Shown here one piece after another: positions 7,958 through 30,249 of a stretch of 53,100 bases of DNA (position 1 is the stretch's first letter; every line of letters starts with the position of its first letter). A program made the position numbers and the translations under genes. The stretch covers positions 1-53,100 of the forward strand of contig CAYTOF010000003.1 of the NCBI GenBank assembly GCA_964439435.1, read 5' to 3'. This DNA comes from an uncultured Oscillospiraceae bacterium. GTDB lineage: Bacteria > Bacillota > Clostridia > Oscillospirales > QAMX01. Below the pieces are notes generated by a model, which saw nothing but the letters and a program-made list of their open reading frames with translations, had not been told where the DNA came from and ran no database searches.

Positions 7958-8908
7958 TTATACATTTTGCACACAAATTTTGTCTAAATGGTGATTGATC
8001 AGCTCAAAAACATCGTATTTTTCCGGTTCGTTTATGATTTCATGGCGCAATCCGTCAAAAATCTTCGTCTCTGTCTTTGCGCCAAATTTCAGGAGCAAAT
8101 GGGAGATCGCCGCCACACCTTTGCCAAATCCGCTCACGGGATCGTCACTTCCCGCCACCAGCAACACCTTTTCGTCTTTTATGGCGGAGAGGTGTTTTTT
8201 CTTATTGCTATAGGCCATGCCGCCCAGCAAATCTCTGAACCCGCCAAGGGTGAAGATAAACCCGCAGTTTTCGTCATTTATATAGAGGTCCAACTTTTCA
8301 CGGTCACGACAGAGCCAATCGAACTCGCTGTAGCTGTCTTTGGAAAACTTTTTGGAGAATTTCCCAAAAGAGAGCTCATTCATTATTTTGCTTCTGTACT
8401 TGTCTCCCTTGAAGAGGATGCCGGTTTTCGCAAGCAAGCTTCCCATCTTTGTTATAAAATCGGGGTTGTGGGCGGGCCCGCTCAAAATATACAAGCAGAT
8501 GGTTTTGGGATACATTGTCATATGTGTCCTGGCCAGCAGAGAACCCATGCTGTGTCCAAAGAGGAAAACGGGCATGTCCGGATACTCCCTTTGCGCAAGT
8601 TTCCGCACCGTCTCAATGTCCTGCACCGCATATTCCCAACCCGAGCGTGGGGCGAAATACCCTTTTATGCCATTTTTCTCCGCTGTTTTCCCGTGTCCGA
8701 GATGGTCCGGAGCATAGAGGGCATATCCCTTTTTCACAAAAAACTCGGCAAACTCATCATAGCGAGCTGCGTGTTCCACCATCCCGTGGGCGATGACAAT
8801 CAGGCCCTTTACCTCGGATTTTTTCGGTTGCCAACGGTGGATGTAAGTTTCAAACCCATCCAACGCAGATTGCATGAAAAAACCGTCATATTGTACGATA
8901 TGCTCCAT
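7958..8908 (-). CDS. alpha/beta hydrolase (lysophospholipase / monoacylglycerol lipase-like)
   Basis: HGMVEH, DHLGHG, GHSMG nucleophile elbow, C-terminal HEIINE. Confidence 0.9.
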   Translation of the reverse strand: MEHIVQYDGFFMQSALDGFETYIHRWQPKKSEVKGLIVIAHGMVEHAARYDEFAEFFVKKGYALYAPDHLGHGKTAEKNGIKGYFAPRSGWEYAVQDIETVRKLAQREYPDMPVFLFGHSMGSLLARTHMTMYPKTICLYILSGPAHNPDFITKMGSLLAKTGILFKGDKYRSKIMNELSFGKFSKKFSKDSYSEFDWLCRDREKLDLYINDENCGFIFTLGGFRDLLGGMAYSNKKKHLSAIKDEKVLLVAGSDDPVSGFGKGVAAISHLLLKFGAKTETKIFDGLRHEIINEPEKYDVFELINHHLDKICVQNV

Positions 8909-8930
8909 AAAAACCCGCCTTTCACATCGA

Positions 8931-8972
8931 TTGACTTGTATATATTTTACCCATATAATATATACAAGTCAA
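8931..8972. promoter_or_regulatory. symmetric divergent sigma-A promoter built from a 16-bp perfect inverted repeat
   Basis: ttgacttgtatatatt-N10-aatatatacaagtcaa; plus strand TTGACT-17-TATAAT, minus strand TTGACT-17-TAAAAT. Confidence 0.8.
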
Positions 8973-8986
8973 TCACCGAGCTCTTC

Positions 8987-9008
8987 GCTTAATAGTGATA
9001 AGGAACTA
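8987..9008. repeat. attL: GC core + arm ttaatagtgataaggaacta
   Basis: arm 8989-9008 is the reverse complement (18/20) of 20053-20072. Confidence 0.8.
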
Positions 9009-9051
9009 AATTACTTATCAACTGTCAGCTGACGGTTTCGGGGTGCATACG

Positions 9052-9095
9052 AAAAGTCCGTCCGACTTCCTAATAGGAGGTTTGGACGGACTTTT
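9052..9095. terminator. bidirectional hairpin near the element's left end
   Basis: aaaagtccgtcc/ggacggactttt 12-bp stem with inner pairing and T tracts on both strands. Confidence 0.65.
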
Positions 9096-9281
9096 GCTGT
9101 TTTATGATGAATATGGACAATTCCTACCCCTAGTTTTTCTAACGTTCAGGAGCATTTTTCTAACGGGTAATTTATTCGACTATGTGGAGTCATTTTGGCT
9201 ATTTATCACCTGAAGACTATGAAAAGCAGATCTCTTTAGCGTAACTCCATGTCCGCAGGGGCGGGCGGGAGAGGGTCGTTA

Positions 9282-11072
9282 TTACTCATAATATGAGGCT
9301 TGCATTAGATACATTTGCGCGTATAATCCGTTTAAATCCATTAATTCTTGATGCGTCCCGTACTCTTTTAACATGCCGCTGTCGATAACTATTATTTTGT
9401 CGCAGAACTTTGCGCTTGACAGCCTGTGGGAAATATAAAACGCGGTTTTATCGCCGATTAAACCATTAAATTGTTTATACAGCAAATATTCTGCGCGAGG
9501 GTCTAACGCCGAAGTCGGCTCGTCTAACACCGTAATAAAAGTATTATCTTTAAAATAGGCCCTTGCAATAGCCAGCTTCTGCTGTTCACCGCCTGACAGC
9601 TCAACGCCGTTTTCATCAAACAGTTTAAATAAATATGTATCATATTGCTCCGGCAATTCTGTTATCCTGTTATGAATGCTGGCTTTTTCCGCCGCTATCG
9701 TGATATTGGTTTTATCTGCATTCGTTAGTGATGTGATGTTTTCACCCATCGTAAACGCAAAGAGCTGAAAATCCTGAAAAACCGACGAAAATACGGATAA
9801 ATATTCGTTGTATTTTATTTCTTTTATGTTTACGGAATTGAATAAAATTTCACCGTCAACCGGGTCGTACAGTCGCATTAACAGTTTAATAAAAGTGCTT
9901 TTTCCCGCACCGTTTTCTCCAACGATAGATATTTTTTCACCCTTGCGGATTTTTACATTGAAATTATTCAGCGCATATTCAGACTGCCCCGGATATTTAA
10001 ACGACACGTTATTGAACTCGATTGTATAGTCGTCCTCTTTGTCGATGTTCAAAGGTCTAACCTCGGTTTTTTCGAATTTATTTTCAAGCCCCATAAAATC
10101 AAGGTAATATTTTATATATCTTATCGAATCCGAATAGGACAAGAGTGTGCTTGAAATTTGCCCAAGCGAGCTTCTTAACAACCCTATAGTGCCAATGGCA
10201 AGCGAAAAGGAACCGAGGGAAAAATCTTTAAATATAACGCTGTATCCCAATAAAATGTACACCGAAAATTGTATAAGATTTTGCAGGAAGCCGGTAATCA
10301 ATCCGTTGAAATCGGAGTAAGTCTTTTTCTTCTTGAATATTTTATTTATCTCAATAAATGCAGATTTTATCTTTTTTCCAATTTTTCCGCCCATATCAAA
10401 GATTCGAATATCTTTGCCGTATGTAAAATCGGAAGCTGTTCCGTTGAAATAATTTATTTCGCGCTGCCTTTTTATTAATTCTTCATCTTTCGGGCGATTC
10501 AATTTAATAAAGATAGCGCTGATAACAGAATTGATGATGATGCCGCCGACCGTTACCGCAATTACGAGAGGATTAATGGCCGCCAATATGACAATCGCGC
10601 TGATTAATAAAATAACATTGGAAAATACAGCTATAAAACTCCAAACCGTATTATTAAATCGAAATGACACAAACTCCCGCGCCAAGTCTTTTAATTCAAG
10701 CGTTTCTTTTTCTGCCAATAATTCATAATCAAGCTCCATGCATTTTTTATAAAAATCCGCCGTAAGTCGTCCTTGCGTTAAACCGCCTCTGCTGATCCTG
10801 ATATTATCGTTAAAATATGTTTTCAGAATGTTGGTTAATAAAACCAAAGCCAATATTCCGATAACAATCATGGCATAATCGGAAAACGGCTCTTCGTTTG
10901 TCAAAGCGTCGAACGTATATTTTACAAGTATCAACGGTGGATATGCCAACAAAGTAAACGAAAGCATTTCGCCTACCGTCATCAACATATAGACTTTATC
11001 TACTCGCCATAAAATCCTGAACAGCGCCGGTATATATGAAAAATAAACTAATAATTGTTTTATCTGCTTCAT
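9282..11072 (-). CDS. ABC exporter, fused TMD-NBD (heterodimer subunit 2)
   Basis: N-terminal hydrophobic helices; GENGAGKST, LSGGEQQK, LDEPTSALD. Confidence 0.93.
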   Translation of the reverse strand: MKQIKQLLVYFSYIPALFRILWRVDKVYMLMTVGEMLSFTLLAYPPLILVKYTFDALTNEEPFSDYAMIVIGILALVLLTNILKTYFNDNIRISRGGLTQGRLTADFYKKCMELDYELLAEKETLELKDLAREFVSFRFNNTVWSFIAVFSNVILLISAIVILAAINPLVIAVTVGGIIINSVISAIFIKLNRPKDEELIKRQREINYFNGTASDFTYGKDIRIFDMGGKIGKKIKSAFIEINKIFKKKKTYSDFNGLITGFLQNLIQFSVYILLGYSVIFKDFSLGSFSLAIGTIGLLRSSLGQISSTLLSYSDSIRYIKYYLDFMGLENKFEKTEVRPLNIDKEDDYTIEFNNVSFKYPGQSEYALNNFNVKIRKGEKISIVGENGAGKSTFIKLLMRLYDPVDGEILFNSVNIKEIKYNEYLSVFSSVFQDFQLFAFTMGENITSLTNADKTNITIAAEKASIHNRITELPEQYDTYLFKLFDENGVELSGGEQQKLAIARAYFKDNTFITVLDEPTSALDPRAEYLLYKQFNGLIGDKTAFYISHRLSSAKFCDKIIVIDSGMLKEYGTHQELMDLNGLYAQMYLMQASYYE

Positions 11073-12889
11073 ACAGCGCCCTCCGTTGTTCTTCGGTATA
11101 AATCAGCCTGCATTGTGTATAATTCTTTATATAATCCGTCTTTTGAAATCAATTCATTGTGAGAGCCGTATTCGGTTATTTCGCCTTTATCGAAAACCGC
11201 GATACAGTCGCAGAATTTTGAACTTGACAACCGATGGGAAATATATATCGACGTTTTATTTTTTGATATTTTATTGAAGCTGTCATATACCTCAAATTCG
11301 GCGCGGGGGTCAAGCGCGGCCGTCGGCTCGTCCAATACAATGATGGGAGCGTCCTTATACACCGCTCTCGCGATGGCGAGCCTCTGCATCTCGCCGCCGG
11401 AAAACTCTACGCCTTTCTCGTCAAATATACGATATAAAGACGTATTTTCAGCCATATCCAAAGAAGAAATTCTTTCTTTCATCTTTGACATAGAAATCGC
11501 CTTTGTTATCAGATTTTCATTGTATTCGCTTTCCATCGCCGCGATATTTTCTTTTAGCGTCAGCGCAAGCAGTTTGTAATCCTGGAACACCGCGGAAAAT
11601 AACTTATTATATGACGAGCGGGTATATTCGGATATATCAACGCCGTCAATCAAGATCCTGCCCGACGTCGGCTTATACAGCCCCATGAGCAATTTAATAA
11701 ACGTGGTTTTACCCGCGCCGTTCTCGCCGACAATCAAAAGAGCCTGTCCCAAACGGATTGTTATAGTAACATTGTGTAATGCGTATGTATCGCTGTTCGG
11801 ATACTTAAACGAAACATTTTCAAATACTATTTCATGATTTCTTGTAATATTCAAATCTGCTTTGTTTGCAACATCAGATAAATATTCTTGTTTGTGTTTG
11901 AAGAAATCAAAGAACGCTTCCAAATAATCCGTGTTTACCGCGAATTCCACGAGATTATATACTAAATTGCTTATCCTGTTCCTTATTTCTCTCAAAGCAT
12001 TTCCGATTAACGTAAACTCTCCGACTGTGATGTGATGCAAAGCCAATACTTCATACCCTAAATATAGGTAAATCCCCGCTTCAAGAATTATATCTGCCAA
12101 ATAGAACAAAAGCATGGAAAATCCGATTATTTTAGTTGCCTTTTTTACTCTCGTTTTAAAGAGAACGGCTTGGAGCTCTTTCATTCGGTTATATAATTTA
12201 TCTTTCAAATTAAACAGGTGTATTTCTTTTGCATAAGAAAAACTTTGCGCTATATCGTATATATAATTAACCTTTCTGATGGTTTCCGTCCTCAATTTAC
12301 TGTCAAAATATTGGCCTTTCGCATTTTTATAATCGTAATATATTCTGCATATCAATGAAATTATAAGCGGAACGATAATTACTATGCTTATGGAAGATAA
12401 GATGTATATTGTGCCCGACAGTACAAGCACGCCGGAAATAAGTCCGGCAATGCTGTTTATAACCGATTCGAGTTTTCCTTGGTTCAACGCTTCCAACGTA
12501 AAGTCTTTTTTCTCTAAAAATTCCTTCTCGCCGATTAATTTATATTCAACATTCATGCAAACATCGGATATCTCATAATTTATCTGCGATTGTATAATAT
12601 TTCGATAATAACCTATCCTGTTATTGATTAAACTGTTTGCGATATTCAGTAAAAACATTATACCGAGTATGACAGAAATGGCAATGATATATTCCGTTAT
12701 ACTGCCTTTTCGGGTTAAGATATCAACTGAGTATTTTATAAGATACATACCCGGAAAAACCTGTACCGAACCCACGACAATATTAACAAAAATCAATATG
12801 ACATAAGCGGGATTTTTCCGCCAAAGAAAAGCAAGACTTTTACCCGAATATTTTATTATGTTTTTTATATTCGATAATATTTTTTTCAT
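11069..12889 (-). CDS. ABC exporter, fused TMD-NBD (heterodimer subunit 1)
   Basis: GENGAGKTT, FSGGEMQR, LDEPTAALD; 4-bp overlap with the next gene. Confidence 0.93.
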   Translation of the reverse strand: MKKILSNIKNIIKYSGKSLAFLWRKNPAYVILIFVNIVVGSVQVFPGMYLIKYSVDILTRKGSITEYIIAISVILGIMFLLNIANSLINNRIGYYRNIIQSQINYEISDVCMNVEYKLIGEKEFLEKKDFTLEALNQGKLESVINSIAGLISGVLVLSGTIYILSSISIVIIVPLIISLICRIYYDYKNAKGQYFDSKLRTETIRKVNYIYDIAQSFSYAKEIHLFNLKDKLYNRMKELQAVLFKTRVKKATKIIGFSMLLFYLADIILEAGIYLYLGYEVLALHHITVGEFTLIGNALREIRNRISNLVYNLVEFAVNTDYLEAFFDFFKHKQEYLSDVANKADLNITRNHEIVFENVSFKYPNSDTYALHNVTITIRLGQALLIVGENGAGKTTFIKLLMGLYKPTSGRILIDGVDISEYTRSSYNKLFSAVFQDYKLLALTLKENIAAMESEYNENLITKAISMSKMKERISSLDMAENTSLYRIFDEKGVEFSGGEMQRLAIARAVYKDAPIIVLDEPTAALDPRAEFEVYDSFNKISKNKTSIYISHRLSSSKFCDCIAVFDKGEITEYGSHNELISKDGLYKELYTMQADLYRRTTEGAV

Positions 12890-12898
12890 AAACGCACC

Positions 12899-14452
12899 TT
12901 ACAATTTAAAAAACATACCGTCATCATGTTCGACTAATACGTTACATACGCTGTCAGGAGAAATTTTTATCTTTCCTGATGTTGTCCATTCACCGATAAC
13001 TTTCTTTAGAAGCGTAAAAAATATGTTTGGATACATTCCCCCTGCTTTATATCTTAAATGTTTAGGGAACAATTTTATAAATCCGTCAGAATATTTTTTT
13101 ACCTGCCGTTGATACAATGGTATAATATCTTCGAAAATGCCGGGCAGCGTTTCTTTGAATCGGTTATACTGTGCGATGGGAAAAAATGGTACGTTAAGTT
13201 CAGCTTTATCTCCGATATTTTTTAAGAAGCCGTTTTTAATTGCTGTTGCCGCAAATTCTTTTTCATTGTCGCTTATATTGTCGCTTTTTATTATTTTTTC
13301 ACAAACTGCGAGTTCATCTTTACGCATTGAATTTATATTTTCAAACGGCGGAAAAACAAATACAATATGACCAATTGTGTGATGTTCCGTATCTATGTAA
13401 TTTCTATTGTCAAAAAAGAATACATTTTTATAATCGTCGGTTCGCGCATAAAATTCCCATTTCCAGCCGTCAAATCTTTCGGGAGTGTTTCGCAATTCGA
13501 ATTTATTATTATACCTTTCATTAAAATGGTCAAAAGCCATAATACAGAACAAACACATTAATTCGTCATAGCTTTTATTTGCCGTGAATATATCAAGTTC
13601 CAATGTCTTTACCGTAAATTTATTTGCTCTTTCCAACAAAATATCGGATATGGATTTTATACATTCTTTTGATTGGATATAATCGTACTTGTTGATTGAT
13701 TCGTCATAAATAATAATGTCGGATAAAATTGTATTTTGCGTAGGTTGTATTATTGTGCCGCATTTTAACAACATTTCGATTCTGTCCTCGATATAATACG
13801 CGGGAACACCTAATATTTTTGATAAATCCTCAACGCTTCTCGCTTCTTTATATACTTGCCAAAGTATGTTTTGCGACAGCGCGTCATTAAGATACATTCG
13901 CGGGATTCCGGCGTATGAACCGTCTGTGTATAGATTCAATTTTATCGGCTTCAATGCTGTTTCCTGCATAATATCAAACTCCTTTTTCAATTTTTCCCGC
14001 CCGATTGACAAGCGGTATTTTATTGTGCCCTCCGGGATATTCAACCGTTCGGCTATTTCTCGGCTTGTCAGATTGTCATAATAGTGCATTACGATAATGT
14101 CGCGATAGCAAGCGGATAACTGCGTTATGTTTTTTCTTAATGTATCGTAAAGTTCGTTTTGCTCAAAATCATATTCGTCATTATACGGTTGTTCGTCAAG
14201 ATCGTCTGACGAATACATCTCCCGTTCTCTGCCTCTGTTTCGGCTAAAAGATTTCAGGGTATTATTGGCTACACCCCACAACCATGCCTCGAATTTATCT
14301 ATATCTTTTATTGCCGTTATGGTTTTCGCCGCTTGCAATAAAATCTCTTGCGCCAATTCTTCCGCTTCCTCACGTGAGTATGTGCGGCGTTGCGAAAATG
14401 AAAAGATTTTATTTATATATTTTACAAGAATTTCGTTATCCATTTTTTCCAC
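12899..14452 (-). CDS. ECF (sigma-24-type) sigma factor with a C-terminal extension of about 350 aa
   Basis: region 2 (AEELAQEI..FEAWLWGVANN) and region 4 (LTSREIAERLNIPEGTIKYRL) in the first ~160 aa of 517 aa. Confidence 0.88.
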   Translation of the reverse strand: MEKMDNEILVKYINKIFSFSQRRTYSREEAEELAQEILLQAAKTITAIKDIDKFEAWLWGVANNTLKSFSRNRGREREMYSSDDLDEQPYNDEYDFEQNELYDTLRKNITQLSACYRDIIVMHYYDNLTSREIAERLNIPEGTIKYRLSIGREKLKKEFDIMQETALKPIKLNLYTDGSYAGIPRMYLNDALSQNILWQVYKEARSVEDLSKILGVPAYYIEDRIEMLLKCGTIIQPTQNTILSDIIIYDESINKYDYIQSKECIKSISDILLERANKFTVKTLELDIFTANKSYDELMCLFCIMAFDHFNERYNNKFELRNTPERFDGWKWEFYARTDDYKNVFFFDNRNYIDTEHHTIGHIVFVFPPFENINSMRKDELAVCEKIIKSDNISDNEKEFAATAIKNGFLKNIGDKAELNVPFFPIAQYNRFKETLPGIFEDIIPLYQRQVKKYSDGFIKLFPKHLRYKAGGMYPNIFFTLLKKVIGEWTTSGKIKISPDSVCNVLVEHDDGMFFKL

Positions 14453-14534
14453 CTCATATATATCAGTGAGAGTTTTTCCGTTTTAGTTGGGATTTTTTCG
14501 ATTATTCAAAACAAATTTTGTCTTGTTATCAAAT

Positions 14535-14563
14535 ATTTTACCATAAAATAATTAGGGAATCTA
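14535..14563 (-). promoter_or_regulatory. sigma-A-like promoter of the ECF-ABC operon
   Basis: minus strand TAGATT-17-TAAAAT with TG extension. Confidence 0.45.
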
Positions 14564-14647
14564 AAAATAATTTTGTTTGGTTCTCTCCGTTGTTCCTGCG
14601 ACGCCGAACACCTCCGGCTGCGCGGACTTGCTTTGTGCCTTTGGCAT
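14561..14647 (-). CDS. 28-aa small ORF MPKAQSKSAQPEVFGVAGTTERTKQNYF (peptide or truncated gene)
   Basis: strong RBS GGAGGTGAATCT-ATG; below the 60-aa ORF-track cutoff. Confidence 0.4.
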   Translation of the reverse strand: MPKAQSKSAQPEVFGVAGTTERTKQNYF

Positions 14648-14764
14648 AGATTCACCTCCATAAAAATAGCCGCAGCTCTCACTGCGGCATATAAAAAAGC
14701 GCCTACCTTTCGATAGACGCTTCTTCGCGGATTTACTGTTAATGTTTGTTATCGGTCGGATAAT

Positions 14765-16084
14765 TTACTCAGAAAGCAACCACTCGACCACATTCTGCGA
14801 CTGAATGCCGTCGTAGGAGGTGTCCAGTCCCGTGTCGAGCGAGAGCACCAGCTTCTCGTAATTGTCGCGGATTTTTTGGAGAGGAGCCAGCTCGCGGCGT
14901 CGGACATCCTCGCTTGTCATGGACTCCGTCACCTGAATATACAGCTTCCTTTCCGCATCGGTGGCGATGAAATCGACCTCGACATTGTCAATCTTTCCGA
15001 TTGCCACATCGTAGCCACGGCGCAGCAGCTCGAAATAAACAACGTTCTCCAGCGCGTGACCGCTGTCTCTGTTGCGAAAGCCCAGCAGGTAATTTCGAAG
15101 CCCGATATCTACAATATAATACTTGCCGAGTGTGCGCAGGTATTCTTTGCCCTTGATATCAAATCGCTTAATGTCGTAGAAGAAATAGCTCTCCAACAGG
15201 GCGTTCACATACGCCTGAACCGTGTGGGCGCTGGGTGAGCCCTTCCGTTTACCGTCCTCAAGCAGCCCCTCGTTTACAAGGGTGTTACCGATAGACGCAA
15301 TCGAGACATTGCTTCCGATGTTGTCCGCGAGGAACAGGATGATTTTGCGAAGCAGTACAGGGTCAGTGATGCGCTGCTGACCTCGACGTTTCTCCCGCTC
15401 TAAAATATCCCGGATGACGACGGTGGAATAAATACCATCAAGCAGGATCAGCGCCTTCTCTTGATTCAGTCCTACGTCAGCTATGCCCGGCATCCCGCCA
15501 AAGCGGAGATAGGAGTCAAAGGCTTCTCTTAGGTCGTAGCGTTCGCCGCTCTTGTCATAGACCTGTTTTCTTATGCCACCTAAGGCGCTCTGCGTTTCCC
15601 TCACTTCGAAGTCATGGAAATACAGAAACTCATTAAAAGACAGAGGCAGCATTTTGATCTCTATGCTTCTGCCGGAGAGGTAGGTCGAATACTCCGACGA
15701 AAGCAGATACGCGTTGGAGCCGGTGATATAGATATCGCAGTTGAAATCAACGCGGAAGGAATTCACCGCCTCCTCCCAGGCGTCGATTCTCTGTAGCTCA
15801 TCGAAAAACAGATACATACGTTTTCCGAGCAGAACGCGCTGCTTCACATAGTTGTAAAGCATATCCGAGGTCATGTCCTTGAAATCGTGAGACTCGAAAT
15901 TCATCTCAACGATCTGATCCTCGGAGATGCCGCTTTCCTTCAGGTGCAGCATCATCAGCTTCAGCAGGCTGGACTTTCCGCAACGGCGGATGCCCGTCAC
16001 CACCTTGACAGGTTCCGTGTCCTGAAAAGCGATGAGTTTATTCAAATACAATTCTCGTTTTTTAAGTTCATGTGATTCTATCAT
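14765..16084 (-). CDS. AAA_14 ATPase with C-terminal DUF4143 (PD-(D/E)xK-like) domain
   Basis: GIRRCGKS Walker A, FFDELQ Walker B, ITGSNA, LENVVY, EVDFIA..IQVT. Confidence 0.9.
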   Translation of the reverse strand: MIESHELKKRELYLNKLIAFQDTEPVKVVTGIRRCGKSSLLKLMMLHLKESGISEDQIVEMNFESHDFKDMTSDMLYNYVKQRVLLGKRMYLFFDELQRIDAWEEAVNSFRVDFNCDIYITGSNAYLLSSEYSTYLSGRSIEIKMLPLSFNEFLYFHDFEVRETQSALGGIRKQVYDKSGERYDLREAFDSYLRFGGMPGIADVGLNQEKALILLDGIYSTVVIRDILEREKRRGQQRITDPVLLRKIILFLADNIGSNVSIASIGNTLVNEGLLEDGKRKGSPSAHTVQAYVNALLESYFFYDIKRFDIKGKEYLRTLGKYYIVDIGLRNYLLGFRNRDSGHALENVVYFELLRRGYDVAIGKIDNVEVDFIATDAERKLYIQVTESMTSEDVRRRELAPLQKIRDNYEKLVLSLDTGLDTSYDGIQSQNVVEWLLSE

Positions 16085-16133
16085 TGATCACACCTCCAGC
16101 GAGCTTAGCATAGCATAAACTCATGCAAAAATC

Positions 16134-16161
16134 AAGTTTTTGCACTCAACTGCAAAAACTT
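16134..16161. promoter_or_regulatory. 11-bp inverted repeat next to the AAA gene promoter
   Basis: aagtttttgca-ctcaac-tgcaaaaactt abutting minus-strand TTGATT-17-TATGCT. Confidence 0.55.
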
Positions 16162-16462
16162 CTCACTTTCGACAAGCTTTGTAGCATACGCTTTTCATAT
16201 AAGACCCTCAGCTATATCGTGATTGACAAGTGAACGGAAATGATTCGATATAGTCATGGACGCGTTATACAGCGTCGCCAGCAGACATATCCCCTCATGC
16301 AAAATCCACACCTTTGTATAGAAATGCCTAAACAACGTCGAGTTTTCAACATTAGGTGCGGATATTTTTATGAGATAATGCAATAATATTCCTACTACAC
16401 AAAATAGTAGGCAGCGAAAAATGGATGTAGAGCACATGCGAGAGACTTACCCCCAACTCACA

Positions 16463-16642
16463 TCATACATCGGCCCATGCATCAGGAGCAAGGTAAACGC
16501 CGTGAGAAACGCGCTCATATTCTTTTGCAGCCACATATTTTGAAAGTATGTACTTTGAAATACCCGCTCCCAGTACGGCCGCCGTAGTTAAAACACCGCC
16601 ACTTGCTTCTGTCATCTGATCAAGTAGTTCAAACTGGCTCAT
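16463..16642 (-). pseudogene. truncated AbiEi (type IV TA antitoxin) N-terminal fragment
   Basis: MSQFELLDQMTEASGGVLTTAAVLGAGISK..YERVSHGVYLAPDAWAD then stop; no AbiEii toxin ORF follows. Confidence 0.7.
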
Positions 16643-16661
16643 GTGCATCATCCCCTTTTAC

Positions 16662-16685
16662 GCTAATATAATAATCTATATTAGC
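16662..16685. promoter_or_regulatory. inverted-repeat operator upstream of the abiEi remnant
   Basis: gctaatata-N6-tatattagc overlapping TTTACT-17-TATTAT (minus strand); AbiEi proteins autoregulate via promoter IRs. Confidence 0.55.
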
Positions 16686-17012
16686 ACAATAGTAAACATG
16701 ATTTTCCATCAAACTCGCTACCAGTATTTCTTATCTTTTGTGTGATTGCATTTGGTGTTTACAACTTCAGCAGAAGTACCCTTTACAAAACTCAGTCCCA
16801 ATTTGGGATTGAGTTTTGTCATAGTGCTGCTTGGCTTGTTTGCACCCCCGCTGTCAAGTTTCAGCCACCGTATTCATGGGCTTGCCGTCCATAAGGCAAA
16901 CACCGCATATCTGCTTGGCATCGAGGCAGAAAACTACAAGGAAAACGAGCATAAGCGAGATGAAAAATAAGCGCCGGCATGGTGCGCAGCTGCATGATGA
17001 AATCATGTGTTC

Positions 17013-17124
17013 AAGGGGCATGGGGATTCCCCATCAAGCAAATTTGCAAAAAATGACGGCAACCGGCATAGCTTGCAAATTGCACGAGTGGGCGCCCACG
17101 TGCATAGCTTGCGCATTCTTATAC
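17013..17124 (+). other. candidate oriT-like region
   Basis: hairpin atggggattccccat, hairpin tgcacgagtgggcgcccacgtgca followed by TAGCTTGC, direct repeat gcatagcttgc at 17066 and 17102. Confidence 0.3.
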
Positions 17125-17668
17125 TAATAAAATGTTATCATCAATTCTATCTTACCAAATCCTACCGATTATCTGCCTTGCATGGCTTTTCGGTGGGATT
17201 TCGTCTTTGTTGGTGGTAACAATATGCTCGAATACAGTACAACATAAATTGTATCGCAAAAAAACTACGATAGGCATCTCCACAGCCCTCAGCCGCTTTT
17301 GCTGGATTGATGACGAACGAATGACCCTAAGTTTTAGTGAGTGTCATTCAGGGCAGCGCGGCGGAGCTCGAAAGCAGATAGATCGTCAGGACGGAATACT
17401 GTCATCTCTTAATCCAATCTCTATACTCTCATTTTACGTTTCCGCAAGCCAGAGGCAAAAGGCTTCTAAACGCTGAATCACTTCCAAAGCCCATCCCTCC
17501 AAAAACGGCATAGTTTGCTTGTTTCACAGAACTTCTCCAGCAAGAGAATTATAACTTTTGAAAAATTCTTTCTGCATCGGTTGTAAAAATGACGTTTTCG
17601 CTGGCTACTACTTGAGGGACAATTTTATTGCAGCCCAAAAACAGCAAATATATTTTCCTCCGGTTCAT

Positions 17669-17721
17669 CCGAACTAATGACGAGGGGTGAACGTTTTGTT
17701 CACCCCTCGTCATTAGTTCGG
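17669..17721. repeat. perfect 24-bp inverted repeat with a 5-nt loop
   Basis: ccgaactaatgacgaggggtgaac-gtttt-gttcacccctcgtcattagttcgg. Confidence 0.95.
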
Positions 17722-17725
17722 GTAG

Positions 17726-17917
17726 GTGCAAACGCTCAACATCGAGGGAAATCCTTGGTTTGTATCCGTTGATGTTTGCGCCGCTCTCGGCGTTTCCCGC
17801 ACTGCTGTAAGACAATTGGACGAAGACGAAAAGGGTGTGCATTCAACGCACACCCTTGGTGGAACCCAGAAGATTGCCGTTGTAAATGAATGTAGTGCAC
17901 CGTCCCACAGAGCATAG
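17726..17917 (+). pseudogene. Bro-N (phage antirepressor-type) domain fragment
   Basis: IEGNPWFVSVDVCAALG..LDEDEKGVHSTHTLGGTQKIAVVNE is the Bro-N pattern; truncated at 63 aa. Confidence 0.75.
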
Positions 17918-18012
17918 TTTAGCAAATTGGGGCGGTAAGTAAAATCCAAAGCGATTGGCACTTATGTTTCATCCCTTGTTGGTGCCTTTCGCAGAAAGGA
18001 ATGCTCTTTTGT

Positions 18013-18255
18013 ATGACCAACAATACCCCCACATACGCGCCTATCGACCTTTGCGCCTGTTATGATTATCTTCCCTACCCGCCGGAGGAGTTCGCGGAGG
18101 AATGCCGTATTTACTGGCACAATCAGAATCCGTTCCGCGGAACGATTCAGCGCCGTATCGGCAATACCTGGTTTACCATCGAAACCGAATGTGTGGGAAG
18201 CGAAAAGCTGACCGATAAGGTCAAGCGGCTCATGTCCTCTGATAAAAGTTTGTAG
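18013..18255 (+). CDS. transposon-encoded TnpW-family protein
   Basis: RRIGNTWFTIETECVGSEKLTDKVKRL; directly upstream of the recombinase; RBS gaaagga. Confidence 0.7.
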   Translation: MTNNTPTYAPIDLCACYDYLPYPPEEFAEECRIYWHNQNPFRGTIQRRIGNTWFTIETECVGSEKLTDKVKRLMSSDKSL

Positions 18256-18353
18256 AGAGGGGGCTTCCATTCATGACAAATACAAAAAATTATGTTAATA
18301 TACAACCATGCACACCGATTCTGTCAGCTGACCCAACTGAAAAGGAGGATACT

Positions 18354-20021
18354 ATGTTGGATCAGCAGAAAATTACCATCATCTATTGTCGCCTGTCCGT
18401 GGAGGACATCAAAGAGGACTCCAAGGGTGGCAAAGCTGACGAATCAAATTCAATACAGAATCAAAAAGAGTATTTAACCCGATATGCAAGAGAGCAGGGA
18501 TACACTAATCTGAAAATACTGGTGGACGACGGCTATACCGGAACAAACTTCAATCGTCCCGGCGTACAGGAGGGATGCGAGCTTGTAAAGCAAGGACTTG
18601 TGGGATGCTGGCTGTGCAAAGACCTTTCCCGTTTTGGACGTGACTATCTGACCGTTGGGCAGTACACGGACATCATCTTCCCCAGCTACGATGTACGATT
18701 TATCGCCGTCAATGACGGGGTGGACAGTGAGCGCGGCGATGGCGAGGGTATGGCTGCAATCCGCAATCTGTTCAACGAATGGTACCCGCGGGATACCAGC
18801 AAGAAAGTCCGTGTCAGCCTCCGTCAGCGTGGCACCAGCGGCAAGCACATGGGCAAGCCGCCCTACGGATACCGCTGCGACTCAGAGGACAAAGAGTTCT
18901 GGGCACTGGACGAGGAAGCTGCCCCGGTGGTCAAGTACATCTTCGACCTCAGTATTGACGGAAAAGGGCCGGAACAGATTGCCCGGATTTTGGAACAGGA
19001 GCAGGTGTTGACCGCCAAAGCCCTGTATGCCAAACAGAAAGGCAAGCCTCTCCCGGAAAGACCGTACCATTGGATCGGACAGTCTGTGGTGGGTATTCTG
19101 GAACGGCAGGAGTACACCGGCTGTACTTGCAACTTCAAAACCTACTCCAAGTCCTACAAGCTGAAAAAGCGGATTCCAAATGCCCCGGTGGATATGTATA
19201 TCATCCCCGACACGCAGGACGCAATCGTACCGCAGGCTCAATGGGACAGAGTACAAGAGCTGCGAAAAAACAAACGCCGCCCCGCTAAAGCGGAACGGCA
19301 GGGTTTTTTCTCCGGGCTTCTGTTCTGTGCCGATTGCGGCGGCAAGCTCCATTTTGCCACCAGCAAGAGCTTTGAGGGCAGACAAGACCGCTATGTATGC
19401 AAGCATTACAAGAGCAACCGCGGTACTTGCACCGCCCACTACATCCGGGAGGATGTGCTGCGGGATATGGTACTGGAACGGATACAGGCAGTGAATGAAT
19501 ATATCCGTGACGATGTCGAGGGCTTTCAGGAGGAATGGCTGCGTTGCCGCAGAACTGACCGGGAGAAGAATATCCGTGAGGACAAAAAGCGGCTGGAGCA
19601 GGCGAAGAAACGCCTTGCAGACTTGGATGTGCTCATACCCCGGCTCTATGAGGATTCCGTCCTTGGTAATCTGAGCATGGACAGATACAAGAAGCTGTCC
19701 GCAGATTATGAAGCAGAACAGGAACGGTTAAAACTCGAAATTGAAGTAACGGAAGAATGGGTAGAACAGCAGGAGGAAATGAACGATAATCTGGACGTGT
19801 TCATTTCCTTGACCCGTAAGTATGTGGATGCGGAGGAACTGACACAGACGATTGTAAATGAGTATATCAAGAAAATCGTGGTGTTCGCCCCCGACAAGTC
19901 CAGCGGAAAGCGGCAGCAGAAAATCCAGATTTATTTCAACTTCGTGGATGAGCTTGATATTCCTGTCATTTCTGACCCGGTGATTACAGAAACAACCTAT
20001 GGACGCAGAAAAACGGCGTGA
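18354..20021 (+). CDS. large serine recombinase (resolvase + recombinase + Zn ribbon + coiled coil, DUF4368-type C-terminus)
   Basis: IYCRLS catalytic Ser, DDGYTG, KDLSRFGR, PYGY, CADCG..C..C; RBS aaggagg before ATG at 18354. Confidence 0.95.
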   Translation: MLDQQKITIIYCRLSVEDIKEDSKGGKADESNSIQNQKEYLTRYAREQGYTNLKILVDDGYTGTNFNRPGVQEGCELVKQGLVGCWLCKDLSRFGRDYLTVGQYTDIIFPSYDVRFIAVNDGVDSERGDGEGMAAIRNLFNEWYPRDTSKKVRVSLRQRGTSGKHMGKPPYGYRCDSEDKEFWALDEEAAPVVKYIFDLSIDGKGPEQIARILEQEQVLTAKALYAKQKGKPLPERPYHWIGQSVVGILERQEYTGCTCNFKTYSKSYKLKKRIPNAPVDMYIIPDTQDAIVPQAQWDRVQELRKNKRRPAKAERQGFFSGLLFCADCGGKLHFATSKSFEGRQDRYVCKHYKSNRGTCTAHYIREDVLRDMVLERIQAVNEYIRDDVEGFQEEWLRCRRTDREKNIREDKKRLEQAKKRLADLDVLIPRLYEDSVLGNLSMDRYKKLSADYEAEQERLKLEIEVTEEWVEQQEEMNDNLDVFISLTRKYVDAEELTQTIVNEYIKKIVVFAPDKSSGKRQQKIQIYFNFVDELDIPVISDPVITETTYGRRKTA

Positions 20022-20038
20022 CCCTGCGGTCACACCGT
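20013..20038 (+). terminator. hairpin overlapping the recombinase stop
   Basis: acggcgtgacc-ctgc-ggtcacaccgt. Confidence 0.45.
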
Positions 20039-20052
20039 TATCTGCGGCAAAA

Positions 20053-20074
20053 TAGTTACTTGTCACTATTAAGC
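20053..20074. repeat. attR: arm tagttacttgtcactattaa + GC core
   Basis: inverted 18/20 match to 8989-9008, 32 bp after the recombinase stop. Confidence 0.8.
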
Positions 20075-20180
20075 CTTGGTTTTAGTTGTTTTACTGTTCT
20101 ACTTTGGTGAGTTCCGGAAAAGTGACTCCAACTTCAAGCTCGGTTTGTTTATTCACATTATAAACTGAGAGGTCTTTCAA

Positions 20181-21677
20181 ATGGACGGCTATATTTTGGC
20201 TCTTGATCAAGGTACCACAAGCTCAAGAGCCCATATAATTGACAGCTCGGGGCAAATTATCGCCTCTGCCCAGCACCCCTTTAAACAGATTTATCCTGCT
20301 GCCGGATGGGTGGAGCATGACCCCTTTGACATCCTCGAAACCCAGCTTCGCGCTGCGGGAGAGGCCTTTGCCCAAAGCGATCTCTCCCCCTCCGATATCG
20401 CCGCCATCGGTATTGCTAATCAGCGAGAGACGACCATTGTGTGGGATAAGCATACGGGCAAGCCCGTATGCAATGCCATTGTCTGGCAGTGCCGCAGGAC
20501 AGCGGAGATCTGCAATGAGCTGATTGCGAGTGGGCTTTCCGAATATGTGCAGGAGAAGACAGGCCTTGTCATAGATGCGTATTTTTCTGCTACAAAGCTC
20601 AAATGGATTCTTGACAATGTGAAGGGAGCAAGAGAGGCGGCGGATAAAGGGCAGCTCCTCTTTGGAACTGTTGAGACATGGTTGATTTGGAATCTCACAG
20701 GCGGTGCCGAGCATGTGAGCGACTGTGCAAACGCCTCTCGAACAATGCTCTTTGACATCGATAAACTCTGCTGGGATGATGAGCTTTTAAAAGCTATTGA
20801 TATCCCAGACTCTGTTTTACCTCGCCCTGTCCCCTGTATGGACTCCATGGGTAAAATTGCCAAGGGCATAAAGCACATGGAATCCTTGGAGGGCATTCCC
20901 ATCTGTGCCGCGGCGGGAGACCAACAGGCAGCCCTCTTTGGTCAGTGCTGTTTTGAACCGGGTCTTGCCAAAAACACATACGGCACAGGTTGTTTTCTCT
21001 TGGCAAACTGCGGAGATGAGCGCCCCCGTTCAAGACATGGACTGGTGACAAGCATTGCCTGGAATACAAATACACAAAAAATATACGCCCTGGAGGGCAG
21101 CGCTTTCAACACAGGCTCTGCCATACAGTGGTTGCGGGATGAACTCGGACTTATAGAATCTGCCAAGGAGTGTGACAAACTTGCCGAAACGGTAGAAAAC
21201 AGCGGCGGTGCTTTTTTCGTACCGGCCTTTACGGGACTCGGAGCACCCTATTGGGATATGGATGCAAGAGGCCTTCTGTGCGGTCTGACTAGGGGTACGA
21301 CCAGGGCCCATGTCGCAAGGGCAGTGCTTGAGAGCATAGCCTTTCAAACGGCTGATTTGTGTGCTGCCATGGAACTGGATCTCGGATTTTGCTTGCGAGA
21401 GTTGCGCGTTGACGGCGGCGCAAGTGCCAGTGATGTGTTGATGGCCTTTCAAGCCGACATCCTGGGTATGAACATAAACAGACCCCAAAACACAGAATCC
21501 ACGGTTTTAGGGGCCGCTTTTATGGCAGGACTTGCCGTCGGGCTTTGGAGTGATACCGCCCGGCTGTCAACAATGCGCAAAACACAGAGAGTTTTTCACC
21601 CTGCCATGTCAAGCGAGCGCAGAGATGGGCTTTATAAAGGATGGAAACAAGCCATAGCACGGACAAGGTCGTTTTAG
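20181..21677 (+). CDS. glpK: glycerol kinase
   Basis: LALDQGTTSSRA, NQRETT, GDQQAAL, KNTYGTGCF; 498 aa. Confidence 0.93.
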   Translation: MDGYILALDQGTTSSRAHIIDSSGQIIASAQHPFKQIYPAAGWVEHDPFDILETQLRAAGEAFAQSDLSPSDIAAIGIANQRETTIVWDKHTGKPVCNAIVWQCRRTAEICNELIASGLSEYVQEKTGLVIDAYFSATKLKWILDNVKGAREAADKGQLLFGTVETWLIWNLTGGAEHVSDCANASRTMLFDIDKLCWDDELLKAIDIPDSVLPRPVPCMDSMGKIAKGIKHMESLEGIPICAAAGDQQAALFGQCCFEPGLAKNTYGTGCFLLANCGDERPRSRHGLVTSIAWNTNTQKIYALEGSAFNTGSAIQWLRDELGLIESAKECDKLAETVENSGGAFFVPAFTGLGAPYWDMDARGLLCGLTRGTTRAHVARAVLESIAFQTADLCAAMELDLGFCLRELRVDGGASASDVLMAFQADILGMNINRPQNTESTVLGAAFMAGLAVGLWSDTARLSTMRKTQRVFHPAMSSERRDGLYKGWKQAIARTRSF

Positions 21678-22524
21678 AGTGTGCTTATATGCCTTGAAAA
21701 CTCCGCTTTGGCACGTTTGAGGTCAGCCGTAGAGACAATCCACTCTTTGCGCTCATTTCCGATGCGCCCTAGCTTTTCCATCTTGGCATTGCCCATTGGG
21801 TGATAGGAAAAAAACTTTACATTTTTACAGTGTGGCAGCCTTTTGTAAAGTTTACGGTATTCACCAAAATGCACCGCAGCTCTATATTTGCCTTGAGACT
21901 GTCCGCAAGCAGCAGGTTTTCTATTATCCTCTCATTTGAAACCCCGGTGTACTCAATATGCCTTTCCTTGTCGCTGTCTTTAAAATCCCATAGCAGCGTA
22001 TCTGTATATTGACACAGTGTGGGCAGAAAGGCCTTGTCGAAATACCCGCAAGTCTCCACCGCTGTATTCAGATTGTTTTCCTTTGCCGCTTTTAAAAGGG
22101 CGATTGTCTCCTTTGGGTATGCCATCGGCTCGCCGCCGGAGATTGTGAGCCCTCCCTCTTTGCCATAAAAAGCGACATCGCGCAGCACTTCGTAGATAAT
22201 CTCATCAATGCCCATCTCTTGGCTGACGGATTCAAGTGCCTTTGTCGGACACACACCCACACAGTCTTCACTCATGAGACATCTATCTCTGTCAAAGACA
22301 TGCTTTCCTGTTGTAAACTGATGTGCGCCGTTTTTGCATATGTTGCAGTTGCCGCACCGAATACATTTGGACGGTGAGTAATATATCTCATTTTCTTTTT
22401 TGTGTGTCTCGGGATTGTGGCACCATTTACATCGCAGCGGGCAGCCCTTTATAAAAACCGTGGTTCTTATTCCCGGCCCATCATGCATACAAAACCGCTG
22501 TATCTCCACCACAGGTAATTTCAT
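21674..22524 (-). pseudogene. glycyl-radical enzyme activating enzyme (radical SAM with ferredoxin insert), frameshifted near 21850
   Basis: HDGPGIRT, CPLRCKWCHNPE, SGGEP; frame stops at 21817 while the normal C-terminus (LYKRLPHCKNVKFFSYHPMGNAKMEKLG) lies in the 21674..21874 frame. Confidence 0.85.
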
Positions 22525-24644
22525 CGCCGCATCCCCTTTGAGCAGCGCTGTATGATCATATCCTGCCACTCTTTGCTGAGGGTCACAAACCGCGCGTTCC
22601 AACCGGAAACCCGCACCGAAAGCGTGGGGTATTTTTCGGGGTGCTCCTGCGCGTCTTTTAAAACCCTTTCATCTATCACATCAAGCTGCATGAAAAATCC
22701 GCCAAGCTCAATGAAGCCTTCAATCAAATGGATGATGGCCGTTGTGCCCTCTTCGTCGTAAACACTTGTCGGGAACAACTCCACATCCAATGCGGCACCG
22801 GACACCGTTTTCCTCAAATCTGCCTTGCAGTAGGATTTTATCATGGCAGTGGCGCCAAGCAAATCCGTGCCGGGTGTGGGCGAAAAATTGCCCGAGAGTA
22901 CCTCGCCTTTTTTACGCCCGTGGGGAGATGCGAGACGCTTTGAGGCCCAATCGATTTGTCTGCCAAATGTGCTGATGCCTGCGGGAAACAACAGAGGGCC
23001 ACCCTTGCTCAACTCACGGCATATCTTGGCAAACTCCTCCACTATGTGCACCGCAATCTCGTCGACATCGTCGCTGTCATTTCCAAAATAAACATAGTGG
23101 TTCAATATGTATTGTCTGAGAGGTTCATGGCCTTCAAAGTTATCTTGCAAAATCTCCATGAATGCGGAAAGCGATAACTTCTTTTCTTTAAAAACAACAT
23201 TCTTTATGGCGTAGAGAGCATTGACAGCATCGGGTAATCCTCCGATATGAGGTGAGATCATATTGTATTTGGGCCCTCCTCCATAATAGGACAGGCCCGA
23301 CTCAATGCACCCCATCGTGAACATTGAAACAACGGAGCAAGGAGTTGCCTCCGCTCTTTCTTGCCAGCGCTTTGGATCAAAGCGCTGGACACTGTAAATC
23401 TCTTCAACTGTTTTGCGTAAATCCTCTATAAATGCTTGATAGAGGTCCTCATATGTCTCAAAAGGCAGTTTTTCATCATATGCCTTCAGTGTCTTCTCCT
23501 GCAACAGCTTTAGGGCGTCGAAGGGGATGTAGTTGAAAAATGTTTTCCCCGGGATTTGCACTTCCCAACAACCGTCATTGGCAAAGGTACGTGCTTCCTC
23601 TATCTCATATCCAAAATCCGTCAGGGCATCTAAAATCAAGTCCTCATTGTATACCGCCACTATGCCGCCGCCATGCCTTATGACTTCGGCCATGCGTTTT
23701 AGCAGCAACGGGTCGGATTTTTTGTTGATGCGGACCGTTATCGGGAAATCGCTTATGCCGAGCTCTTCGATTATATCCAAAACAAGATATGTCACTTCAT
23801 TTGTGATGTCCTCTCCGTTTTCATCGACACCCGAAAGGACGATATTTTGATAGTGCTGCGCATCGCCGCTGATACTTCTCTCTCCGCGAATCCACTCGCA
23901 ACCTTTTATGAAGAAGTGTGCCAGAAATTCCCGCGCTTGCTCCACTATCACGGTACCTTTTTCCAAATCCCTTTTCAGATACGGCCCGAGCATTGCGTCG
24001 ATTCGGCCGATACCCGACCAATTGCCGCAGAGCCTTGTAAAGGCAAAGGTAAACCAAAGGCTTTGGACAGCTTCAAAGAAATTGCTTGCGGGATAATAGG
24101 GCACATTTCGCAGGTTTTTTAATATATCACCGTGTTTCTCATCCTCGCTAAGCGCCTCAATATATCTGCTGTGCCAAATCTTCAGGCAGGAAATACAGTG
24201 CAACATGCTGTGAAGGTTGGCAACTTTTTCTTTCTCTGTCTGAACGGCCAAGGACCTGTTGATGCGCTTTTCTATGTCTAATAAGCCATACTTCAATACC
24301 CTGTCAAAGCCCAATGTCACATGGCTCACGCTGTTTATAAAAAGGTTGCCGTTGTGGGTAGCCGGCACCATATGTCTTATCGCAGCGCCCAAAGTGGCCG
24401 CACCCGATAAAAGCTCGTTTTCACAGATGCGTATCGGTGCTTTTTGCGCTATTTCCAATATAGCCGCATTGTATTTGTCCGGCAGACTCATTTGATCAAA
24501 ATCTGCCAGATGATCCAAGGACACAGCTTGATTTTTCCATGTGTCCTGTCCGTATTTAAAGTGCAGTGAATCGTATGCAAAAGCTCTTGTTTTTTCAGAG
24601 AGGCGCACAGGACGGTTTTCTTTATAAGCTGTATAAAACTCCAT
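22521..24644 (-). CDS. glycyl radical enzyme (PFL-like family), substrate unknown
   Basis: Cys loop ANDGCWEV and Gly loop YPTLSVRVSGWNARF; 707 aa; ATGA overlap with the activase. Confidence 0.9.
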   Translation of the reverse strand: MEFYTAYKENRPVRLSEKTRAFAYDSLHFKYGQDTWKNQAVSLDHLADFDQMSLPDKYNAAILEIAQKAPIRICENELLSGAATLGAAIRHMVPATHNGNLFINSVSHVTLGFDRVLKYGLLDIEKRINRSLAVQTEKEKVANLHSMLHCISCLKIWHSRYIEALSEDEKHGDILKNLRNVPYYPASNFFEAVQSLWFTFAFTRLCGNWSGIGRIDAMLGPYLKRDLEKGTVIVEQAREFLAHFFIKGCEWIRGERSISGDAQHYQNIVLSGVDENGEDITNEVTYLVLDIIEELGISDFPITVRINKKSDPLLLKRMAEVIRHGGGIVAVYNEDLILDALTDFGYEIEEARTFANDGCWEVQIPGKTFFNYIPFDALKLLQEKTLKAYDEKLPFETYEDLYQAFIEDLRKTVEEIYSVQRFDPKRWQERAEATPCSVVSMFTMGCIESGLSYYGGGPKYNMISPHIGGLPDAVNALYAIKNVVFKEKKLSLSAFMEILQDNFEGHEPLRQYILNHYVYFGNDSDDVDEIAVHIVEEFAKICRELSKGGPLLFPAGISTFGRQIDWASKRLASPHGRKKGEVLSGNFSPTPGTDLLGATAMIKSYCKADLRKTVSGAALDVELFPTSVYDEEGTTAIIHLIEGFIELGGFFMQLDVIDERVLKDAQEHPEKYPTLSVRVSGWNARFVTLSKEWQDMIIQRCSKGMRR

Positions 24645-24826: not shown

Positions 24827-24913
24827 TGGTGCGGATAAGAGGACTTGAACCTCCACCGTATTACTACGACTAGAACCTGAATCTAGCGCGTCTGCCAATT
24901 CCGCCATATCCGC
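24827..24913 (-). tRNA. tRNA-Leu (anticodon CAG)
   Basis: GCGGATATGGCGGAATTGGCAGACGCGCTAGATTCAGGTTCTAG..GGTTCAAGTCC..ACCA; long variable arm. Confidence 0.97.
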
Positions 24914-24952: not shown

Positions 24953-24981
24953 ATTATAATATGTGCAAGCACCGTTGTCAA
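24953..24981 (-). promoter_or_regulatory. consensus promoter of tRNA-Leu(CAG)
   Basis: minus strand TTGACA-17-TATAAT. Confidence 0.85.
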
Positions 24982-30166: not shown

Positions 30167-30249
30167 TGGTGCGGGTAACAGGATTTGAACCTGCATGGTT
30201 TCCCACCGGAACCTAAATCCGGCGCGTCTGCCAATTCCGCCATACCCGC
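30167..30249 (-). tRNA. tRNA-Leu (anticodon TAG)
   Basis: GCGGGTATGGCGGAATTGGCAGACGCGCCGGATTTAGGTTCCGG..GGTTCAAATCC..ACCA. Confidence 0.97.

Follow-up and report, generated by a model that had tools for sequence, protein, structure and literature searches.

A TnpX-like integrative element between a palindromic two-way promoter and glpK in an uncultured Oscillospiraceae bacterium

Introduction

It is already known that an excisable element can uncouple a gene from its promoter. In Streptococcus pyogenes, the phage-like chromosomal island SpyCIM1 lies at mutL, and its excision restores the transcription of downstream genes (PMC4689407, PMC3430984). Elements of the Tn4451 family recombine at 2-bp identities with low specificity, and they do not need a directionality factor (PMC5704250). 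Here, we describe an 11-kb element with a TnpX-like recombinase that lies just upstream of glpK (glycerol kinase) in an uncultured Oscillospiraceae bacterium. We analyzed positions 1 to 53,100 of contig CAYTOF010000003.1 (assembly GCA_964439435.1); this whole stretch of 53,100 nucleotides (nt) is referred to as the window, and all coordinates are positions in it.

A first look at this sequence had led to the proposal that the element separates glpK from a consensus promoter and that excision rejoins them (the original prediction). We will argue that the locus most likely reflects an ordinary insertion of the 11-kb element, between a two-way promoter and glpK, that is now fixed. Our favored reading as a whole is that a TnpX-like insertion cut glpK off from a rightward promoter and is stable, with a possible polar effect and no programmed switch; we give this about an even chance of being correct.

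Results

Ends of the element and its crossover

The genes on either side of the element, a hydrolase gene (7958..8908, minus strand) and glpK (20181..21677, plus strand), form a divergent pair with foreign DNA between them. We set the ends of the element by comparison with 11 related elements, which are from contigs with recombinases that are 86–93% identical. The DNA similarity of these relatives to the window is limited to 8983/8984-9117 and 18129-20078. At the right end, all of the relatives that we fetched are the same up to ...CACTATTAAGCC-TT, and then they continue into at least 6 different host sequences. The left end is visible in two relatives (L007 and L008), which have the same TT borders: the host sequence is followed by TT-[G/C]G[C/A]TTAACAGTGATAAGG, and the pattern is flank-TT-[G/C]G[C/A]TTAA[T/C]AGTG. 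Because the relatives share these right and left ends, we infer that the crossover, with its single 2-bp identity, is TT and that the element is 8986-20077 (11,092 bp). The empty site discussed below is likewise a reconstruction from this comparison.

In attL, the crossover would be at 8984..8985, and homology with the relatives begins at 8983/8984. In attR, it would be at 20076..20077; the relatives are identical to this point and then diverge. The element has a terminal inverted repeat of 22 nt (91%), which is formed by 8987-9008 at the left end (the P' arm) and by 20053..20075 at the right end (the P arm of attR). The P' arm is part of a conserved left-end module (8986..9117), which also contains a two-way terminator hairpin (9052-9095) and then a T-tract. 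The predicted attB junction is ...CAATCACCGAGCTC-TT-GGTTTTAGTTG... and the predicted attP junction is ...CACTATTAAGCC-TT-CGCTTAATAGTG...; once joined, attP would be a near-palindrome, CACTATTAAGC-C-TT-C-GCTTAATAGTG.

We also considered a crossover at TTAA, which is shared between 8989-92 and 20069-72. This was ruled out, as the relatives' identity continues to ...AAGCC TT.

A palindromic two-way promoter beside attL

The promoter in the original prediction, TTGACT-17-TATAAT at 8931-8959 on the plus strand, does match the sigma-70 consensus (11/12), and we will call it P(+). What had been overlooked is that P(+) is half of a 46-bp near-perfect palindrome (8929..8974), with 21-nt arms (8929-8949 and 8954-8974; 95% complementary) and a 4-nt center, and that the palindrome holds a mirror promoter. 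This mirror promoter, P(-), is TTGACT-17-TAAAAT (10/12) at 8944..8972 on the minus strand, and its -10 ends 35 nt before the ATG of the hydrolase gene. So, the hexamers and the 17-nt spacing of sigma-70 promoters are present on both strands, before the start codon of the hydrolase gene. Overlapping face-to-face promoters are the layout of a shared operator for two divergent genes, and the palindrome is a candidate operator that includes both promoters. There is no second occurrence of the half-site in the window at up to 2 mismatches.

To judge from its sequence, the palindrome certainly serves the hydrolase gene. A palindrome necessarily creates a mirror promoter. P(+) is thus what the symmetry of the hydrolase promoter/operator would produce anyway, and it does not count as separate evidence that a gene to the right is its target. 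Whether the plus arm serves such a gene cannot be read from its presence alone. P(+) is one of ten sigma-70 sites with at least 11/12 matches on the two strands of the 53-kb window. Several of these ten are directly upstream of genes or tRNAs, so the organism clearly uses promoters of this type.

P(+) faces the element now, and it would face glpK in the empty site, which is the only arrangement in which it has a gene target. It had been placed about 30 bp from attL; the two are indeed close, but the distance should be 25 bp, counted from the end of the -10 hexamer to the TT crossover at 8984-8985.

The left end of the element would stop transcription from P(+). The hairpin at 9052-9095 is strong, has T-rich tails on both strands, and belongs to the module that is conserved in the element family; a transcript from P(+) is predicted to end there after ~135 nt. 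Also, the genes in the element are mostly on the opposite strand to P(+). Given this terminator and 11 kb of mostly opposite-strand genes, a transcript from P(+) cannot reach glpK when the element is integrated. The claim that the element parts glpK from a promoter is thus plausible in its geometry (11 kb and a terminator at the left end), while its other half, that the promoter is glpK's, does not follow from P(+), which is half of a palindrome.

As a side note, the two-way terminator (9052-9104) is also found at the left ends of L007 and L008. It would insulate the element against transcription from the host, and the host against transcription from the element.

The rebuilt empty site

We rebuilt the empty site in silico by joining 8985 to 20078. 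This gives a divergent intergenic region of 180 bp, in which the end of the P(+) -10 is 129 nt from the ATG of glpK (130–140 nt had been expected, which is close), with a leader of ~123 nt. In this reconstruction, the leader forms a long, imperfect hairpin of 72 nt, with ACCGAGCT/AGCTCGGT at its base and then TTGTTTATT (-24.2 kcal/mol; z -2.4; 3/300 shuffles were as good). The 5' base of this hairpin, ACCGAGCT at 8975..8982 on the plus strand, pairs with 20137-20144, so the hairpin exists only in the empty site. The insertion splits it within its 5' flank.

A terminator on the plus strand between P(+) and glpK could equally be a leader attenuator or a plain insulator. If it is an insulator, then glpK would have its own start further down.

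Upstream of glpK in the integrated state

At the right end of the element, a hairpin overlaps the stop of the recombinase gene, as originally described for 20013-20038. We place its inner stem at 20012-20039 and its extended stem at 20004..20046 (-28.9 kcal/mol, z -5.2), and it is conserved at the right end of the element family. It has a T-rich tail on the minus strand and no U-tract on the plus strand, where no terminator was called. Transcription could therefore continue from the recombinase gene into glpK.

The host DNA before glpK (20078..20180, plus strand) includes an inner hairpin, AGCTCGGT at 20137-20144, a T-rich tract at 20145-20153, and the Shine-Dalgarno sequence AGAGG. On the plus strand of 19900-20300, there are no sigma-70 sites with 9/12 matches or better. 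The best match is 7/12 in these 103 host bases, and 8/12 if we consider the 200 nt of the integrated state, which agrees with the original view that 20075-20180 lacks a promoter comparable to P(+). The 7/12 match is TTCAAG-17-CATTAT, which ends 19 nt before the ATG of glpK, so that transcription would start at the ribosome-binding site. We rejected a hybrid promoter at attR (TTGTCA from the element with a -10 from the host), as the -10 would be only TAGTTG, for a total of ~7/12.

Forms of the locus in metagenomes

To look for other forms of the locus, we used assembled contigs from 12 metagenomes from several studies, with coverage of 2–8x; rare excision would be beyond the reach of these contigs. 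The element was present in all of the runs (12/12), and both attL and attR are spanned by contigs. The depth of the element equals that of its flanks in the four runs with the best coverage. Neither an empty-site junction nor a circle junction was found in the contigs of the 12 metagenomes, and contigs at 2–8x do drop rare forms. The rebuilt attB, whether based on TTAA or on the corrected TT junction, was absent from JGI metagenome contigs.

The only variant of the element among the structural variation in the metagenomes was the presence or absence of an ATPase gene (14690-16213); the rest was cross-species artefacts at glpK. The shorter form, in which 14689 is joined to 16214 with 20 other bases (GTTATATCAAACCGTTCGCC) between them, was found in contigs of four metagenomes.

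For RNA, there were just a few short contigs from two runs, one of which is labelled 'METAGENOMIC RNA-Seq' and may hold DNA. These are too thin to locate start sites of glpK.

Comparing gene order across relatives of the host genes was of limited use. No homologs of the hydrolase with over 50% identity were found. The nearest one (L021, 50% identity) shares the order hydrolase-groES-groEL with the window, and its contig stops 18 nt short of the gene. For GlpK, the closest relative has 64% identity, and the relatives of glpK, none closer than this, are in other gene contexts; in one of them, the divergent intergenic region is only 137 nt long. A scan of a genome collection gave a single match, at 41%.

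Relatives of the element

The element belongs, to judge by its recombinase, to a very common and promiscuous clostridial family. At E ≤ 1e-100, the database contains 7,770 related recombinases, and the best 120 of these 7,770 are 78–93% identical. In a collection of plasmids, the recombinase has only relatives with under 60% identity. The relatives encode a primase (Zn_ribbon_DnaG, DUF5906), a Mob_Pre relaxase, a small protein of ~100 amino acids, and a terminal recombinase, along with variable cargo. By these genes, they are TnpX-like integrative mobilizable elements (IMEs).

Low target specificity is apparent from the right flanks, of which there are at least 6 different ones among the 11 relatives. 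The relatives adjoin genes for addAB, ldh/groEL, rmlD-like, LRR, AAA_14, and transposase proteins. None of the 11 is at glpK, and no regulatory site is shared across the related hosts. Given that the relatives are at at least 6 unrelated sites, the position at glpK is one insertion among many rather than a conserved regulatory site.

Several of the relatives are in or beside terminator-like hairpins: this is seen in the right flanks of L005, L008, L011, and L013–L015, and in both flanks of L007 and L008. The insertion site of L008 is AAAAACCCTGTAACCA-TT-GAGATTACAGGGCTTTT, and an example of a hairpin is ...CCCTGTAACCA-TT-GAGATTACAGGGCTTTT. Such sites suggest that the preferred targets are palindromic terminators with TT in the loop. 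The placement of the relatives in terminator-like hairpins, together with the split leader hairpin in the window, fits a recombinase that prefers palindromic targets.

Gene content of the element

From left to right, the element contains ABC (ATP-binding cassette) genes, a sigma factor fusion, an ATPase gene, gene debris, a small gene, and the recombinase gene. The recombinase (18273..20021, plus strand) reads outward toward glpK. It is a large serine recombinase of full length (582 amino acids) with the Pfam domains Resolvase, Recombinase, Zn_ribbon_recom, and DUF4368. Among sequences in PDB, the Tn4451 TnpX catalytic domain is the top match (2.5e-29), and the match covers this domain alone. 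Directly upstream is a gene for an 84-amino-acid protein (18001..18255, plus strand), which has 51–59% identity to proteins at the same position in the relatives and no match to any family. It could be an accessory or directionality factor.

The window's copy has lost its relaxase and primase. When we compared the relatives' proteins to 8901-20200 with tblastn, we found no match for Mob_Pre, primase, or DUF5906; the small protein was the sole match. Thus, a relaxase and oriT of its own, which a Tn4451-like IME would have, are missing. A decayed segment of ~1.9 kb (16100..18000) contains only fragments of genes: DUF6017 at 16195-16437, an AbiEi antitoxin at 16463-16651, and Bro-N at 17726-17917. 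In the plasmid collection, this segment has only a 69-nt match to an antirepressor. The segment has no long open reading frame, and it includes a perfect 24-nt inverted repeat (17669-17721). At ~16700-17200, the metagenomes show raised depth and many variants, so this part is shared or repeated sequence.

The cargo is of low G+C content (33–40%, versus 45–50% outside the element). Two ABC exporter genes with fused membrane and ATPase domains (9282..12889, minus strand) probably encode a heterodimeric exporter. Upstream of them is a gene for a 517-amino-acid protein (12899..14452, minus strand), whose first ~165 residues are an extracytoplasmic function (ECF) type sigma factor and whose remaining C-terminal ~350 residues have no family match. 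The polymorphic ATPase gene (14765..16084, minus strand; AAA_14/DUF4143) follows.

The host and the flanking genes

The host organism was found in metagenomes from bioreactors, wastewater, sludge, landfill, and digesters. Its glpK is intact: the protein hits the NCBIfam equivalog TIGR01311 with 684.7 bits (the cut-off is 590), and Pfam likewise supports a glycerol kinase. The divergent neighbor is an alpha/beta hydrolase that resembles lysophospholipases and monoglyceride lipases, and its homologs are annotated as lysophospholipase. It matches Hydrolase_4 in Pfam (3e-45), and the monoglyceride lipases of M. tuberculosis and of humans are among its sequence matches in PDB (1e-15 to 1e-18, in the N-terminal half), so the original description of it as like a monoacylglycerol lipase is fair at the family level.

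Convergent with glpK are genes for a short glycyl-radical enzyme (707 amino acids) and its activase (21817-24644, minus strand). The glycyl-radical enzyme does not reach any of the NCBIfam equivalog cut-offs, among them those for glycerol dehydratase/PFL2, hydroxyproline dehydratase, and CutC. Just 3' of glpK, at 21840-21850, population contigs from six metagenomes have 23 additional bases (AGCTGCCACCTCTTTTATATGCT) relative to the window. The window also contains a tmRNA gene (45607-45955, minus strand) and two tRNA genes on the minus strand (24830-24913 and 30170-30249), the first of which has a perfect 12/12 promoter at 24981..24953. No Rfam family matched in or near the locus.

Discussion

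An insertion that probably became fixed

In the reading that we favor, a low-specificity TnpX-like element of 11,092 bp would have entered a TT in the 180-bp divergent region between the hydrolase gene and glpK. The point of insertion would be 25 bp downstream of the palindromic promoter/operator and in the 5' flank of a terminator-like leader hairpin. Before the insertion, the minus arm would have driven the hydrolase gene, and the plus arm would most likely have driven glpK via the ~123-nt leader with its attenuator-like hairpin. The insertion would have severed this link: transcripts from the plus arm would now end at the terminator at the element's left end, and transcription of glpK would depend entirely on weak signals nearby or on RNA that continues out of the recombinase gene. 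The relaxase and primase genes would have been lost later, and the integrated copy is the only form seen in the sampled populations. That the insertion severed glpK from its promoter is plausible, and we see roughly even odds between this and a start site of glpK's own.

Several points weigh against a severed promoter. The ancestral arrangement is a reconstruction, as no empty site was seen anywhere. The leader hairpin has modest support (z -2.4). P(+) might be no more than a side effect of the palindrome. Also, glpK may have its own start, because a third of the other genes that are first in their operons lack a recognizable promoter: among the putative operon-first genes in the window, 8 of the 24 others have no 9/12 promoter. 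The lack of such a promoter before glpK is therefore weak evidence. Finally, one 179-nt contig labelled as RNA covers 20004-20182, which would fit read-through, and the run may contain DNA.

Some of these points lead to an alternative that we consider possible and rather unlikely, namely that the insertion was neutral. P(+) would never have been the promoter of glpK, the rebuilt hairpin with its T-tract would be a constitutive terminator or insulator, and glpK would have a weak or activator-dependent promoter at about 20130-20180. A mirror promoter that is forced by the palindrome is what we would expect in this case, and so is a terminator-like plus-strand hairpin that the rebuilt site has between P(+) and glpK. 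The 7/12 site near the ATG and the other operon-first genes without a 9/12 promoter are also consistent with it. So are the intact glpK, even though the element is the only form seen, and the relative of glpK with a divergent region of just 137 nt. On the other hand, transcripts from the 7/12 site would begin within the Shine-Dalgarno sequence or immediately at it. Also, the -10 of P(+) (TATAAT) is better than that of P(-) (TAAAAT), which is unexpected if only the minus arm is under selection. Lastly, terminators in the leaders of glycerol genes are a known design: in Bacillus subtilis, glpFK and glpD have leader terminators that are controlled by GlpP antitermination.

The original prediction went further than a severed promoter. 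It proposed a reversible switch, in which glpK is off or rewired when the element is integrated and is restored by excision. In the fuller form that we considered, excision is regulated and precise (for instance, with glycerol or lipid), rejoins P(+) to glpK, and restores the leader hairpin. We found no positive evidence for this idea, it remains unsupported, and we consider it improbable. The full-length recombinase and the two att arms are intact; enzymes of the TnpX type excise without a helper (PMC5704250); and excision would rebuild both the link between promoter and gene and the split hairpin. The loss of transfer genes while the recombinase is kept, in what is the only form seen across sites, is what one would expect if an element had been domesticated, and SpyCIM1 is a precedent in principle (PMC4689407). 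Against this, no excised form or circle was found in the 12 metagenomes, with flat depth in the best-covered runs. A regulated switch also conflicts with a promiscuous family that is found at many unrelated sites and with cargo (ABC exporters and an ECF sigma factor) that is unrelated to glycerol. We identified no regulator of excision, and an element that has neither replication nor transfer genes would be lost upon excision, which would make any switch one-way only. If the switch were real, a metabolic case with a serine recombinase as its driver would join the few known excisable elements that control a gene by parting it from its promoter, and it would show the taming of a promiscuous mobile element.

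More doubtful still is that the host keeps a transfer-dead relic of an IME as a one-step switch, whose excision rejoins the two-way promoter to glpK and rebuilds the attenuator hairpin, although this, if true, would mean that an uncultured bacterium of anaerobic digesters links its use of lipid and glycerol to a rearrangement of its DNA.

As the evidence stands, the comparison defines the likely ends and the TT crossover of an abundant and poorly described family of clostridial integrative elements. The family seems to have a tendency to land in terminator-like hairpins, and this case illustrates how an insertion can cut a divergent promoter region.

Comparison with known systems

SpyCIM1 embodies the principle of the original prediction, as the integrated island parts downstream genes from an upstream promoter. 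It differs in having one conserved site, in replicating as an episome, and in its growth-phase-dependent excision, which was shown experimentally; the element in the window is known from sequence alone.

The original prediction also likened the element to skin. The skin and sigK-type elements, with recombinases of the SpoIVCA type, are similar in that a large serine recombinase is encoded by a decayed element that can no longer transfer (PMC5025042). The likeness goes no further: skin and sigK-type elements lie within a coding sequence, leave the chromosome only in a terminal cell, and have a site that is conserved across strains, whereas the window's element is intergenic and its relatives are at many sites.

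By its description, IME_Rho_tet (the Roseburia hominis type, with tet(W)/tet(32); PMC12904643) is an IME of gut Clostridia of about the same size (~10.7 kb). It has a relaxase, a serine recombinase downstream of the relaxase, terminal inverted repeats, and variable cargo (PMC12904643). Unlike the element in the window, it is reported to integrate mostly into small MAFF2 genes, and it carries other cargo (PMC12904643).

The domains of a large serine recombinase, a single 2-bp identity, and imperfect terminal inverted repeats all place the window's element with the Tn4451-like elements. The crossover of Tn4451 is GA, and that of the window's element would be TT. In Tn4451 and Tn4453 (from Clostridium perfringens and C. 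difficile), as here, a large serine recombinase (TnpX) is the sole gene for integration and excision, a single identical 2-bp crossover flanks the element, target specificity is low, and ~6–11 kb of DNA includes cargo genes (PMC5704250). The Mob_Pre (MobV) relaxase of Tn4451/Tn4453 is shared with the relatives of the window's element, while the window's copy lacks a relaxase/oriT module. The window's element also differs in that its recombinase gene is at the extreme right end and reads outward, and in that its cargo is ABC exporters and an ECF sigma fusion instead of catP.

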